A DNA stretch of 64,000 bases from Escherichia phage PP01: the sequence record NC_054930.1; one strand, given 5' to 3'. Below the pieces are notes generated by a model that did no database searches, had not been told where the DNA came from, and worked only from the letters and a program-made list of their open reading frames with translations. Shown here one piece after another: positions 633 through 8,133 of the stretch (within the stretch, counting starts at the first letter, position 1; every line of letters starts with the position of its first letter). Both the position numbers and the translations under genes were made by a program.

Positions 633-662
633 ATACTATCACAATTCCAAGAGAAAGTAAAC
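633..662 (-). promoter_or_regulatory. T4 early-type sigma70 promoter (-35 GTTTAC, extended -10 TGaTAGTAT)
   Basis: Minus-strand read GTTTAC-N18-TAGTAT with TG upstream of the -10; same architecture recurs at three other sites in the window. Confidence 0.4.
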
Positions 663-666
663 AGCT

Positions 667-1161
667 TTATAGATTTTTATACGCATTCCAAGCGCCAGTT
701 CTAAACGTTGCAATGACTCGTTTTGCGCGGTTAGGTGTTTGATTATACCATCTACTTTTAGCTAAGTTAACTGCTGCTTCATCCCAACGTTTTTGTTGAA
801 GCATACGCAAAGAGTTAGTAAATCCAGCTACGCCAGTTTCTCCCATTTGGAAAACCATATTAATCAATGCACAACGACGAACCGCATCAAGAGAATCATA
901 AACCGGTTTTAATTTAGCATTTCTCAGAATTCCGCGAACAGCAGCATCAACATCCTGATTAAAGAGTTTTTCAGCCTCATCTTTTGTAATTACACCATTA
1001 CAATTACGCCCAATAGCTTTGTCTAATTCAGATTTAGCAACACTGAGCGATGGACTTTTAGTAAGCAAATGACCAATGCCAATAGTGTAATAGCCTTCTG
1101 TGTCTTTATAGATTTTAAGTCTAAGACCTTCATCTATACGTAACATTTCAAATATATTCAT
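667..1161 (-). CDS. e: Endolysin (T4 lysozyme, gene e)
   Basis: 164 aa; [33 protein letters not shown] is near-identical to T4 lysozyme; catalytic Glu11, Asp20, Thr26 present; SD AGGAGG upstream. Confidence 0.97.
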
Positions 1162-1174
1162 AATACCTCCTAAG

Positions 1175-1195
1175 TATTTATAGAAGGTATTTATA
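1175..1195 (-). promoter_or_regulatory. Two T4 late-promoter boxes (TATAAATA) upstream of gene e
   Basis: Plus-strand tatttata at 1175-1182 and 1188-1195, i.e. TATAAATA on the coding strand 14-34 nt upstream of the e start. Confidence 0.55.
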
Positions 1196-1198
1196 AAA

Positions 1199-1654
1199 TT
1201 AAAAGAGGTTGTTCATTATTCGGTAAAGTGAAGGACCCATCACATATTGCCACTGAGTACGAGGAATAAGAGCAAAAGCATCCATCTCTGGAATCATAAC
1301 GCCATCTTTATTTTCAAAATAAGACTCGCAATGGCAATTTCTGAACATCTCATGCTCTACTGGAATCGTATAATAAAATAACTGTAAGTTTTTATTACTA
1401 GAATATTTAAATACACCTAGGTCTTCTAGAAGGTCTGGATTATAATTGCCAAACCCAGTCTCTTCTAAGCATTCTCTTCGTGCTGCATCTAATGCGCTTA
1501 AATCAGAACATTCTACACGACCTTTTGGAATATCCCAACGATGTGCCATCATTCCAGGCTTACGAGAACCAGTAACCCGACCCATAAATAAATCTTTATC
1601 TTCTGTCATAAAGATAATACCAGCTGATAATGTTTTCATTTTAATTTCCTGCAA
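1199..1654 (-). CDS. nudE: Nudix hydrolase NudE
   Basis: 151 aa as in T4; Nudix box [24 protein letters not shown] (Gx5Ex7REUxEExGU); immediately downstream of e as in T4. Confidence 0.85.
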
Positions 1655-1998
1655 TCACTCACAAACTCTTTCATTGATTCATTTTCAATATAAGACATGT
1701 AGCTATTATATTCTTTTAATTGTATTTTGTAATCCTTTTTTCTTTGCCAATTTATTTTAAAATTATCATAATGAAAATATAACATGGTACCAAAGAATGA
1801 AAATAATGAAATAATTTTAGTATAGTGAAGTTCACTCCAAACTTCTGTTATATTTACTGTGCCGTCGATGTTTAAAATAAGACAGTCAATTAACAATCCA
1901 AAAAGACTACCCGCAAGAGCTGCAGCCAACGCCACAGCAAAAATTAAAAATGACTCAGGAAGCGAATATTTGGCTTTATTTAGTTTTGGCTTTTGCAT
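1636..1998 (-). CDS. Hypothetical small membrane protein (e.2-e.8 region)
   Basis: 120 aa ORF with a hydrophobic stretch (FLIFAVALAAALAGSLFGLLI); overlaps neighbours by a few codons in T4 style. Confidence 0.5.
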   Translation of the reverse strand: MQKPKLNKAKYSLPESFLIFAVALAAALAGSLFGLLIDCLILNIDGTVNITEVWSELHYTKIISLFSFFGTMLYFHYDNFKINWQRKKDYKIQLKEYNSYMSYIENESMKEFVSDCRKLK

Positions 1999-2393
1999 CG
2001 TGATTCCTTAACAAATTTCATAATTTCATCAAATTCATACGCAGCAAGTTTAAGCTGATATTCCTTTTTAATCTTTTTACACTGTGCTTTCCAATCACGT
2101 ACGCGTTTACGATAATGCCTTCCTTGATACCAGTATCCTACCCAATTTACAGGTACTAATAAAAATGGAACTATTAATGGAAGAATTAGCATTAATACAA
2201 GTATTTCGCCAGAATCAATATCAGTCATAACATCTAAAACACCTCCAATAATCAATAGAATTACAAATGATATGAGTATAACAGGACCTATTAATACATC
2301 AGTAGAAATTAGCTGGCGCTTTAATTCATACTTCAAAGGTTTACTTGGAAGGTATAGTGATGGCTTTGACATATTCTCTACATTCCTTAACAA
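1980..2393 (-). CDS. Hypothetical membrane protein, two predicted TM helices
   Basis: 137 aa; hydrophobic segments VLIGPVILISFVILLIIGGVL and ILVLMLILPLIVPFLLVPV; true start may be an internal Met. Confidence 0.45.
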   Translation of the reverse strand: MLRNVENMSKPSLYLPSKPLKYELKRQLISTDVLIGPVILISFVILLIIGGVLDVMTDIDSGEILVLMLILPLIVPFLLVPVNWVGYWYQGRHYRKRVRDWKAQCKKIKKEYQLKLAAYEFDEIMKFVKESRCKSQN

Positions 2394-2949
2394 ATTTTTC
2401 TAGTAATAAATCGCTTTCAAAATTAGGATTTTCCACGAATTTATCAAAAAGATCATCAACGATAGTTAAGATATTCTTTTTATTAAGAATACGCTTATTT
2501 TCATATTTTGTTTCAGAATCAACTATAAGAGTAAAGAAATATTTCTTGCCCCGAAATTTTACAGTAGTATCAATATAGAATAAATTTGACTTTTGTAAAT
2601 TACGTTTAAACCATGCATCACTTAAACTATAAACGCCGAGATAATCATAATCGTCGTTTAAATAACAGACCGTCCATTCAGGAGAAACAAAATCAGTAAA
2701 TTCAACGTCAAAATCGCATGTTAATAAATGAATTGATTCAATGCTGTTAATAAGTATTCCAGGACGTATTAAAGACTTTTTACCTCTAGAAAATCTTCCA
2801 GAAAGACTTTCATCAGTTTCATATGAAGAACCCCAATAATAATTACGCCCTTCTGCCATACGTTTAAGAGCATTTAGTAATTGGTCTGGAACATCAACCT
2901 GTCTTTGGAACTCTTCAAACATTGAATTGAAATCACTTTGCATTTTCAT
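2341..2949 (-). CDS. Hypothetical protein
   Basis: 202 aa ORF in the operon frame and orientation of the e-proximal early region. Confidence 0.5.
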   Translation of the reverse strand: MKMQSDFNSMFEEFQRQVDVPDQLLNALKRMAEGRNYYWGSSYETDESLSGRFSRGKKSLIRPGILINSIESIHLLTCDFDVEFTDFVSPEWTVCYLNDDYDYLGVYSLSDAWFKRNLQKSNLFYIDTTVKFRGKKYFFTLIVDSETKYENKRILNKKNILTIVDDLFDKFVENPNFESDLLLEKFVKECREYVKAITIPSK

Positions 2950-2970
2950 TCCTATTTACTCCAAGTAATA

Positions 2971-2984
2971 GGGGCCGAAGCCCC
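2971..2984 (-). terminator. GC hairpin (ggggccGAAGcccc) between ORFs, possible terminator or RNA-stability stem-loop
   Basis: Perfect 5-bp G/C stem with GAAG loop; the same hairpin family recurs at 34131, 44441 and 48131. Confidence 0.35.
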
Positions 2985-6761: not shown

Positions 6762-6858
6762 ATTATTAACAAAGGCTCTCTAACAAGAACCCTTGATGAT
6801 AGAGGGTATTAATCAGTGCGGTATGAGTTAATAATAACAAATAATTCTTAAAGCATAT

Positions 6859-7146
6859 TTACCATTTATGATAATACATATTTACGATGCATTCAAGACC
6901 TAAAGGATTCTTGAAAATATCATATTCAAGAGGACCTTTTTCCGTTTCAATAAAGAAATCAAAGTTAACTGTATTAAATTTACGGTCTTCCTTCACTAAT
7001 TTAACTTGAGAAGATGAACGGTCAATGTAAACCTTTTCAACTTCAAAACATGTTAAAACGCCATAATCATCAATCAAGGCTTTAGCCGCGTCTTGATCAT
7101 ATTTATATCCATTTTCAATGGACGATACTTTAGCATAAAGAATCAT
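6859..7146 (-). CDS. Hypothetical protein
   Basis: 95 aa ORF; its ATG sits 3 nt after the stop of the upstream frameshifted ORF. Confidence 0.5.
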   Translation of the reverse strand: MILYAKVSSIENGYKYDQDAAKALIDDYGVLTCFEVEKVYIDRSSSQVKLVKEDRKFNTVNFDFFIETEKGPLEYDIFKNPLGLECIVNMYYHKW

Positions 7147-7148
7147 TA

Positions 7149-7558
7149 TCAGCCTTCATCAACAATAGTATGAGTGTGGGCATTTACGATTTGCCACCAG
7201 TCGAAACGATTGGAACCATAATCTGGTTTATTTTCATTTTCTTTAATGATATCACGCAGTTTATCTTCTGTTTCAGCATACGCAATTAAATCATCATATC
7301 CGCCACAAGGATAATAATTATCACCTGCGAATAAAAGAAAATTTACCTTAGATGGATTTACGTAATAATGGTCTTTAGGATATTTAGTTCCTCTCCAATC
7401 AGTTACTTCAACATAACGGTAAGAAAATCCATTTTTACTTTCAATCCAACTCCACGCTTCAAAAGGAGTATTAAAAACTTTATCAGGTATTAAATTACCT
7501 TCAAAATGAGAAGGATTTGCATAATCCCAGCATAAACATAGTATTCGTTAATACTCAT
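7149..7558 (-). pseudogene. Frameshifted ORF (about 135 codons), absent from the ATG-based track
   Basis: ATG at 7556-7558 opens a frame that stops after 22 codons; a different frame continues stop-free for about 130 codons (WDYANPSHFEG...GDNYYPCGGYDDLIAY...WWQIVNAHTHTIVDEG) to a stop at 7149-7151 but has no ATG/GTG/TTG start. Confidence 0.4.
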
Positions 7559-7744
7559 CTATTCACCTTTAGAAATTTTATCCATAACGATAGCGATTAA
7601 ACCAATTAAAAATGCTACTACAAGCGAAAACACATTTTCTGCTGTAGTTAATAATCCGCATATAAATCCAACAAACATTGAAAAACTAAAAGCGGAAGCA
7701 GAAATTGCAATAGCAACATTTCGAATTAATTCACAACGTTTCAT
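7559..7744 (-). CDS. Small hydrophobic membrane protein (61 aa)
   Basis: Start taken at the internal ATG (7742-7744) preceded by GAGGAG; the track ORF begins at a TTG; sequence MKRCELIRNVAIAISASAFSFSMFVGFICGLL is strongly hydrophobic. Confidence 0.45.
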   Translation of the reverse strand: MKRCELIRNVAIAISASAFSFSMFVGFICGLLTTAENVFSLVVAFLIGLIAIVMDKISKGE

Positions 7745-7772
7745 TTTATTCTCCTCAGTAGTTGATAGGGTA

Positions 7773-7802
7773 ATAGTATCACTACTAAAACCCCGTGTAA
7801 AC
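7773..7802 (-). promoter_or_regulatory. T4 early-type promoter copy (GTTTAC -35, gTGaTACTAT -10) overlapping an inverted repeat
   Basis: Minus strand aaataatttcacaaagttGTTTACacgggg...gtgaTACTAT; 49-nt block shared with the copy at 8104-8133. Confidence 0.4.
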
Positions 7803-7814
7803 AACTTTGTGAAA

Positions 7815-8072
7815 TTATTTTAAATCTTCTAATCGTTTCTTCATCTTAGAACCATTTTTAGCGATTTCTCCTGCGTCAGAGCATAATGCTAAAAGTGCTT
7901 TAACTTTAGTTTGGTCTCCTTTAAAAGACGAAGGATCGACTGCAGCAGCAAGTTCTTTAATACGAGAGAAAAGACGCTCAGCTTCAGCTAAAGCCATTCC
8001 AAGCTTTACTTCCATACCATGAGAAGATTCAGTGATAATAGTTTCTGTAGCAAACTCTTTATAAGTTTTCAT
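7815..8072 (-). CDS. Internal protein I-like (85 aa) with CTS
   Basis: MKTYKEFATE N-terminus (CTS variant); adjacent to 57B as ipI is in T4; the body differs from what I recall of T4 IPI. Confidence 0.65.
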   Translation of the reverse strand: MKTYKEFATETIITESSHGMEVKLGMALAEAERLFSRIKELAAAVDPSSFKGDQTKVKALLALCSDAGEIAKNGSKMKKRLEDLK

Positions 8073-8103
8073 TTTATTTTTCCTAATTAATTTTGATGAG
8101 GTA

Positions 8104-8133
8104 ATAGTATCACTACCTCATCAGTGTGTAAAC
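8104..8133 (-). promoter_or_regulatory. T4 early-type promoter copy (GTTTAC -35, gTGaTACTAT -10)
   Basis: Same 49-nt block as at 7773-7802; hairpin ctgatgaggta...tacctcatcag overlaps the -10; drives the ipI-like gene. Confidence 0.4.

Follow-up and report, generated by a model that had tools for sequence, protein, structure and literature searches.

Repeated early-promoter modules at the borders of exchanged small genes in the T4-like Escherichia phage PP01

Introduction

Early promoters of phage T4 carry GTTTAC at −36 to −31 together with an A-rich region at −40 to −44 (Nolan 2006, PMC1524935), and T4 early promoters with the upstream element (UP)/−35/TGn/−10 architecture out-compete host promoters (Hinton 2010, PMC2988021). 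Conserved regulatory sequences flanking the internal-protein (Ip) genes of these phages were proposed three decades ago to let those genes shuffle (Repoila, Tetart, Bouet & Krisch 1994, EMBO J 13:4181, as summarized by Arbiol 2010, PMC2839356, and Comeau 2014, PMC4122927). Here we describe repeated early-promoter modules in a 64,000-nucleotide stretch of Escherichia phage PP01 (NC_054930.1), which we call the window, and compare its first 9,700 nucleotides with the same region of related phages. We conclude that early promoters with long recurring identity very probably double as homology patches for general recombination, through which genes lying between modules are deleted, inserted or replaced.

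The closest described systems already contain most of this picture. As the later summaries convey it, the early-promoter/stem-loop elements of Repoila 1994 occupy the same loci as those treated here (57B-ipI-trna.4, and the e-ipIII-ipII side) in the same phage group, with the same shuffling proposal. Promoter(early) stem-loop elements (PeSLs; Arbiol 2010, PMC2839356; Comeau 2014, PMC4122927) likewise combine an early promoter with a stem-loop, often over the −10, and likewise sit in hyperplastic regions before small open reading frames (ORFs), at the breakpoints of indels and replacements between close relatives. Their promoter consensus in T4 and PST is TTTACW-N17-TAYWAT, and five Ip differences separate PST from T4 (Comeau 2014, PMC4122927). 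The PeSLs of RB49 and phi1 have near-perfect TTGACA/TATAAT promoters, G/C-rich stems and measured terminator activity, and the T-even IP elements have been classed as their analogues, not their homologues (Arbiol 2010, PMC2839356). The shuffling role of elements at these loci is therefore already published (Repoila 1994; Arbiol 2010; Comeau 2014). In the Botstein-Campbell "linker" model, too, short conserved sequences between interchangeable modules steer homologous exchange to safe places; that model is general, whereas the linkers described here are identifiable regulatory elements.

Results

Seven early-promoter copies at gene ends

The strict pattern GTTTAC-N18-TA(C/G)TAT occurred exactly four times in the window, always on the minus strand (633-662, 4340-4369, 7773-7802 and 8104-8133). 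Shuffled sequences gave a mean of 0.02 matches, and none of 100 shuffles reached four. These are the four sites given in a preliminary description of the interval 633-8133, made from the sequence alone. All four exist, and all have the TG before the −10 and the A/T-rich upstream region ascribed to them, but the set was incomplete. Relaxing the −10 added 3612-3640 and 4003-4032 in the same interval, and the search for further genome copies that the description had proposed yielded, over the 64 kb, one more outside it, at 57107-57136 just after alt. A profile built solely from the modules of relatives returned the same seven sites at E < 0.01 in 64 kb, each on the minus strand and at the end of a gene, with nothing else below E = 0.38 in the rest of the 64 kb.

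We number these minus-strand sites P1 to P7. P1 (633-662) follows the lysozyme gene e and precedes an internal-protein-like gene, and its core is identical to that of the T4 promoter before ipIII. P2 (3612-3640; GTTTAC-N17-TATTAT with TG) precedes e.6, P3 (4003-4032; −10 TATTAT, no TG) precedes e.7, and P4 (4340-4369) precedes e.8. P5 (7773-7802; profile E = 2.2e-10) occupies the interval between an Ip5-type gene and trna.4, and P6 (8104-8133; GTTTAC...TGATACTAT; E = 1.7e-10), the homologue of the T4 ipI promoter, the interval between 57B and the Ip5-type gene. P7 (57107-57136) is found between alt and a 96-aa ORF.

The −35 GTTTAC was exact at all seven sites. Measured between the canonical hexamers (TTTACA/TACTAT), the spacer was 17 nt at P1, P3, P4, P5 and P6 and 16 nt at P2. 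The extended −10 TGn was present at P1, P2, P4, P5, P6 and P7 and missing at P3 (GAGATATTAT). The 25 nt upstream of the −35 were 76-88% A+T, compared with a window mean of 64%; P2 had just 60%. The distance from the −10 to the next minus-strand start codon was 26-54 nt at all sites, and the sites fit the consensus TTTACW-N17-TAYWAT. The genes downstream of the modules (Ip5, the Ip-like gene, e.6, e.7, e.8 and trna.4) are small accessory ORFs in hyperplastic regions.

At three sites the promoter runs into the preceding gene. A stop codon abuts the −35 (TAA-GTTTAC) at P2 (3641-3643/3640) and at P3 (4033-4035/4032), where it is that of e.8, and the TAG of alt (57136-57138) overlaps the G of GTTTAC at P7. 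The UP region at P2, P3 and P7 is therefore coding sequence, and the C-terminal residues of the upstream proteins are constrained accordingly.

Near-identical T4 homologues exist for five of the six sites in the interval, namely P1, P2, P4, P5 and P6, before ipIII, e.6, e.8, trna.4 and ipI, respectively. Miller 2003 reportedly gives mapped start points for these T4 counterparts. The depositors of SA20RB and fPS-90 labelled homologous sites as T4 early promoters, and the T4 GenBank records have no promoter features annotated. A generic sigma-70 scan is uninformative alone in such A/T-rich DNA (44 matches, 35.7 expected). Compared with published T4 early promoters (Liebig & Rueger 1989; Miller et al. 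2003; Hinton 2010, PMC2988021), we found the same GTTTAC, A-rich upstream region and TGn plus −10, likewise placed before early genes of the counter-clockwise strand. There was no substantive difference; the −10 here is TACTAT, TAGTAT or TATTAT, as against the E. coli consensus TATAAT. Judged by sequence and literature, and in line with the preliminary description, we infer that the sites are sigma-70-dependent early promoters of a T4-like phage.

Paired modules around the Ip5-type gene

P5 and P6 flank a gene of 85 codons (7815-8072, minus) as a cassette. It had been called ipI-like; its product is instead an internal head protein of the Ip5 type (phrog_3499, 3.7e-50), and ipI stands in its place in T4 and three further relatives (SA20RB, G10400 and R5505). 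The two modules are 86% identical over 69 nt. Within them, a 32-nt run is identical on the minus strand (8126-8157 = 7795-7826, read 8157..8126 = 7826..7795; GATTTAAAATAATTTCACAAAGTTGTTTACAC), and so is a 17-nt run (8100-8116 = 7769-7785, read 8116..8100 = 7785..7769) that holds the extended −10 core GTAGTGATACTATTACC. Nine differing bases part the two runs, which together make up the shared "49-nt block" noted earlier.

The upstream gene finishes inside the 32-nt run (three codons, DLK, plus the stop), which also takes in the UP region and the −35. The upstream gene is 57B at 8126-8157 and the Ip5-type gene at 7795-7826. As had been observed, both proteins end in DLK (57B ...DWADDLK; the 85-aa protein ...RLEDLK), because the run spans their last codons and stop. 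Most simply, the DLK end of Ip5 would derive from the 57B end, part of which was duplicated as the cassette junction formed. The 17-nt run around the −10 core is also the zone in which the two halves of the module reassort in relatives.

Breakpoints and reassortment among relatives

The first 9,700 nt of the window are 95-96% identical to e11/2 (vB_EcoM_112), RB32 and RB33, which places the phage among the T4-like coliphages of the genus Tequatrovirus; 1102 phage records match this region. We mapped breakpoints by chaining local blastn matches of the homologous region of 11 Tequatrovirus genomes against window positions 1-9700.

Every difference among the 11 relatives at the 57B-trna.4 locus was bounded by modules. 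Two module copies enclose one or two additional Ip genes in e11/2, RB32, SholemSchwarzbard, ZCEC15, fPS-90, teqsoen, a48 and R5505. The alignments on either side of the junction overlap by 47 nt (7739-7785) or 24 nt (7762-7785) in seven of these eight, the exception being R5505, and the overlap consists of the −10 core and the 3′ hairpin arm. The ipI gene replaces Ip5 in T4, SA20RB and G10400 between 7814/7820, in the stop codon and UP region, and 8049/8053, in the first seven or eight codons, which encode the conserved packaging leader. R5505 carries ipI plus an extra Ip gene. The layout of the window, with Ip5 alone, also occurs in Shigella phage ESh17, which matches in one piece at 100% coverage. 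Roughly 790 public genomes have a match to this locus.

At the second locus, five relatives have lost e.7, carry a replacement for it or have an extra ORF beside it; these changes lie between 3600/3601 and 3980-4033, beside P2 and P3. Overall, 8 of 32 breakpoint clusters fell in modules, which make up 6.8% of the 9.7 kb (rough binomial P about 0.001), and three further clusters lay within 25 nt of a module, in the first codons of the downstream gene. This comparison, which the preliminary description had itself proposed, supports the shuffling suggested there, with breakpoints in and beside the modules at 57B-trna.4 and e.7.

The modules themselves have been reassorted. The promoter half follows Ip5 or ipI and is joined to four different leaders, those of trna.4, Ip9, Ip6 and another Ip (IpX). 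In RB32 the two arms form a chimera, the 5′ arm being of type C and the 3′ arm of type a, and the hairpin is destroyed (−4.4 kcal/mol). The RB32 depositors had themselves remarked on a "43 bp direct repeat" around Ip7 and Ip9.

The intergenic module 7745-7814 was also 91% identical (64/70) to that of Klebsiella Jiaodavirus phages (loci L004, 2033-2107, and L005), where the flanks were far more divergent (rest of trna.4, 56% identical; 57B, about 68%). Two Klebsiella Jiaodavirus phages differ by an internal-protein gene inserted at the module. The 91% match reflects either strong constraint on the whole module or exchange between genera.

Promoter modules as probable homology patches

The pattern suggests a mechanism in which, as soon as infection begins, host RNA polymerase would start from the modules and transcribe small early genes that are mostly dispensable (internal proteins, e.x and trna.x). 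What recurs, with long stretches of identity, is the entire intergenic unit: final codons of the upstream gene, A/T-rich UP region, −35, extended −10 with its facultative hairpin, leader and ribosome-binding site (RBS). It would therefore also serve as a homology patch for the very active general recombination of the phage. Crossovers between copies, within one genome or in co-infecting relatives, would delete, insert or replace the intervening gene while leaving every gene with a working promoter. Comparison of the relatives places the exchange zone at 57B-trna.4 in the −10 core plus the 3′ hairpin arm; the UP/−35 half moves together with the gene before it, and the leader/RBS half with the gene after it. 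In experiments, homologies as short as 6-10 bp suffice for T4 to recombine (Srikant 2022, PMC9391042), and identical runs of 17-32 nt are therefore ample.

Several observations weigh against a role of the promoters in exchange. The other 24 of the 32 breakpoint clusters lie outside promoter modules, at other short repeats or sites, including the terminator-hairpin repeats 4497-4532/5054-5089, a 30-nt overlap at 1636-1665, the tRNA/segB segment and the inside of trna.3. In fPS-90, 46 unrelated bases remain where e.7 was deleted, so that this was no clean crossover from promoter to promoter, and P4, a perfect promoter, had no breakpoint in the 11 relatives. Moreover, viable recombinants need junctions between genes, so that part of the enrichment is survivorship and not promotion of exchange.

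The same observations can be read to mean that the copies are alike merely through consensus constraint on strong early promoters, that junctions inside genes are lethal, and that modules mark exchange without promoting it. Junctions at promoter-free gene boundaries (1636-1665, 6867-6879 and 7344-7558) fit this account, as do the breakpoint-free P4 and the untidy e.7 deletion. We nevertheless consider it unlikely. The identity of P5 and P6 extends beyond the consensus elements into coding sequence, with 32 nt that include the DLK codons. The high-scoring pairs overlap at the junctions by 24-47 nt, as homologous crossovers predict; the module halves are reassorted exactly at the common core; and T4 recombination is documented at much shorter homologies.

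Mosaicism as a by-product of SegB homing, through co-conversion of flanking markers, was also considered. The segB gene is present (5483-6148), and segB and tRNA content varies among relatives. However, the junctions at the Ip locus and e.7 are at least 1.5 kb from segB and have sharp borders at repeated modules, and the intervening DNA is conserved. We rejected SegB-driven co-conversion on this distance and regard it as scarcely credible.

A facultative hairpin over the −10

Folding recovered the inverted repeat that had been reported to overlap the −10 in both Ip-flanking copies. The P6 hairpin (8094-8123, minus) has 13 bp around the −10, with arms CTGATGAGGTA and TACCTCATCAG (−17.4 kcal/mol, z = −4.05), and the P5 hairpin (7767-7794, minus; GGGGU..AGUAG/CUAUU..ACCCU) is weaker, also over the −10 (−14.9 kcal/mol, z = −2.3). 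P3 has a further 13-bp hairpin over its −10 (3995-4026, minus; arms AUAGGCUCAUGAU and AUUAUGAGCCUAU; −18.2 kcal/mol, z = −5.1), and P1 a weak one of 8 bp (623-646, minus; −12.1 kcal/mol, z = −1.6). RNA folding gave no hairpin at P4 and P2 (−2.5 and −3.3 kcal/mol; z = 1.15 and −0.44). A combination of promoter and hairpin is thus clear at P6 and P3 and weaker at P5 and P1, and P4 and P2 lack it. Rfam found eight tRNAs in 1-9700 and nothing more, and so no family for the promoter hairpins.

We scanned IMG/VR for GTTTAC-N14-GTGATACTAT and reduced the 112 loci found to 66 non-redundant modules. Eighteen of the 66 fold at −12 kcal/mol or below, compared with a mean of 2.4 and a maximum of 6 when 3′ flanks were swapped (300 permutations); the mean module energy was −8.10 kcal/mol, against −5.27 ± 0.25 with swapped 3′ flanks. 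Eight unrelated arm pairs occur in the register of the P6 hairpin. The covariation score of the P6 structure (ungapped alignment A1) was 0.219, against 0.147 ± 0.014 in shuffles, none of which (0/500) reached it, and it exceeded that of every slid version. This folding excess, shared register and covariation across the 66 modules indicate that the hairpin genuinely, if facultatively, accompanies this class of promoter.

The hairpin could be the functional core, a terminator or attenuator insulating each cassette as in the RB49/phi1 PeSLs, with promoter likeness secondary. Strong termination has been measured for one phi1 PeSL stem-loop (Arbiol 2010, PMC2839356), the SA20RB depositors annotated terminators over both ipI-flanking promoters, and the arms covary. 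Yet none of the promoter hairpins is followed by a U tract; their tails are A-rich (e.g., AAAAUUAAUU and ACAAAUGA). They were not among the nine terminator-like sites found by scan, and true terminator-like hairpins lie elsewhere, at 4506-4529 and 5063-5086. Compared with the RB49/phi1 PeSLs, the stems of the window are A/U-richer and missing from two of six copies (P4 and P2), and those of the T-even IP loci were described as weaker than, and not homologous to, PeSLs (Arbiol 2010, PMC2839356). We rejected intrinsic (rho-independent) termination for want of a U tract, which also leaves the "terminator" half of the published PeSL concept unsupported for these copies and counts against our own account; a hairpin-centred explanation as a whole appears doubtful.

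The alternative of a DNA cruciform was evaluated from strand-specific pairing. G·U pairs occur in the arms of four of eight long stems and A·C pairs in none of the eight, a small sample that favours RNA structure of the sense strand over a cruciform. The sense strand also folds better than the antisense strand (−8.10 vs −6.34 kcal/mol); the invariant core GUGAUACUAU itself gives two G·U pairs, so this gap is not independent of the core, and the independent evidence is that of the arm counts.

These counts also speak against a site-specific exchange, in which a dedicated protein would recognise the hairpin or cruciform and move promoter-plus-gene mini-circles in the manner of an integron. PeSL mini-circles have been detected and a site-specific possibility raised (Arbiol 2010, PMC2839356), and a cassette flanked by direct repeats, such as Ip5, is the expected remnant of Campbell-type circle integration. 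By analogy with that mini-circle model (Arbiol 2010), a circle of gene plus module integrating into a resident module would leave the direct-repeat layout seen around Ip5. However, we found no integrase-like gene in the interval: the seven ORFs scanned against PHROGs match T4-type genes, and the rest are collinear with annotated T4/RB32 genes. Junction positions also vary within the module (7739, 7762, 7785, 7814 and 7820). The missing recombinase gene and the variable crossover positions argue against a site-specific system, which we hold to be very improbable.

The predicted transcription start, about 7 nt after the −10 (about 8097), would fall inside the 3′ arm of the P6 hairpin, and the hairpin would therefore form only in RNA read through from upstream. 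The hairpin appears to be under selection in its own right, with attenuator, 3′-end protector and processing site as candidate roles. Tentatively, the −10 hairpin might be a separate RNA element of read-through transcripts, selected apart from promoter function (e.g., as a 3′-end protector or processing signal, not a terminator), in a module of about 70 nt that is exchanged between genera; we see this combination as possible, though not as the likelier outcome.

Gene order and other cassette linkers

Every gene in region 1-9700 is encoded on the minus strand, and the gene order was derived from ORFs, PHROG matches and collinearity with T4 and RB32. It begins with gene 1 (stop codon 8843-8845, start not fixed), 57A (8601-8843) and 57B (8146-8601), whose final codons lie within the P6 module and which is labelled "RNA ligase" in some relatives and "anti-CBASS protein Acb1" in one. 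After the Ip5-type gene come the trna.4 homologue (7559-7744), the constant downstream neighbour of the internal-protein array, then trna.3 (7147-7558), trna.2 (6859-7146), the eight tRNA genes, segB and an Ip-like ORF (4537-5010; N-terminus MKSYTQF, phrog_2280). They are followed by e.8 (4033-4296), e.7 (3641-3976), e.6 (2991-3584), e.5 to e.3, nudE, the lysozyme gene e (667-1161), the Ip-like gene at 261-578 and the start of Ip4. Relative to T4, trna.3 has a 1-nt deletion near codon 11 (TATG-CTGGGAT vs TATGCCGGGGAT) and loses its frame after about 23 codons, through either pseudogene formation or sequencing error.

Two other types of linker are present in this region. Direct repeats of 36 nt (4497-4532/5054-5089, 92% identical), themselves terminator-like hairpins with U tracts, lie on both sides of the Ip-like ORF 4537-5010. 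This cassette is missing in T4, fPS-90 carries an additional one there, and the RB32 depositors remarked on a "34 bp imperfect direct repeat" at its flank. The 36-nt repeats are thus a second, terminator-based type of cassette linker. A 54-nt direct repeat (209-262/543-596, minus, 85% identical) covers the RBS and first codons (MKTYQEF packaging leader) of neighbouring internal-protein genes; gene 261-578, between its copies, is missing from RB32 and e11/2, with the junction within the repeat. This combination of RBS and leader codons is another linker type.

Further mosaic sites were observed. The window lacks e.2 (about 455 nt), present in nine of ten relatives spanning the site; the junction, 1636-1665, is a 30-nt stretch common to the nudE-proximal and e.3-proximal sides, with no promoter involved. 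In several relatives, denV (411-413 nt) sits between P1 and the internal-protein genes or takes the place of gene 261-578; the window has none at 593-608. Segments 5399-6190 and 6435-6755 hold segB and a tRNA set that varies among relatives: segB is missing or replaced in some, additional genes for tRNA-His, Asn and Tyr occur, and other endonuclease genes are inserted between tRNAs. This segB/tRNA mosaicism is unrelated to the promoter modules.

Discussion

The principle that regulatory elements at these loci allow gene shuffling was published in 1994 and given general form in 2010 and 2014, so the window is one more well-behaved example and brings no new idea. Three small points may go further, and perhaps these are already in Repoila 1994: the exchange zone at the −10 core, the covarying hairpin arms without terminator tails, and the 91% match to Klebsiella Jiaodavirus phages. 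The practical value lies in annotation and in the choice of insertion sites in engineered T4-like phages.

T4 Ip1, Ip2 and Ip3 are inhibitors of GmrSD type IV restriction enzymes, each acting on a different one (PMC12373910). The shuffled genes are thus counter-defence genes, and 57B, with its Acb1 label, forms a counter-defence hotspot together with the adjacent internal proteins. A double role of the modules as promoters and linkers would explain how such genes can be swapped fast with expression intact. If the exchange of modules between genera is true, counter-defence cassettes would dock at one and the same module in different T4-like genera.

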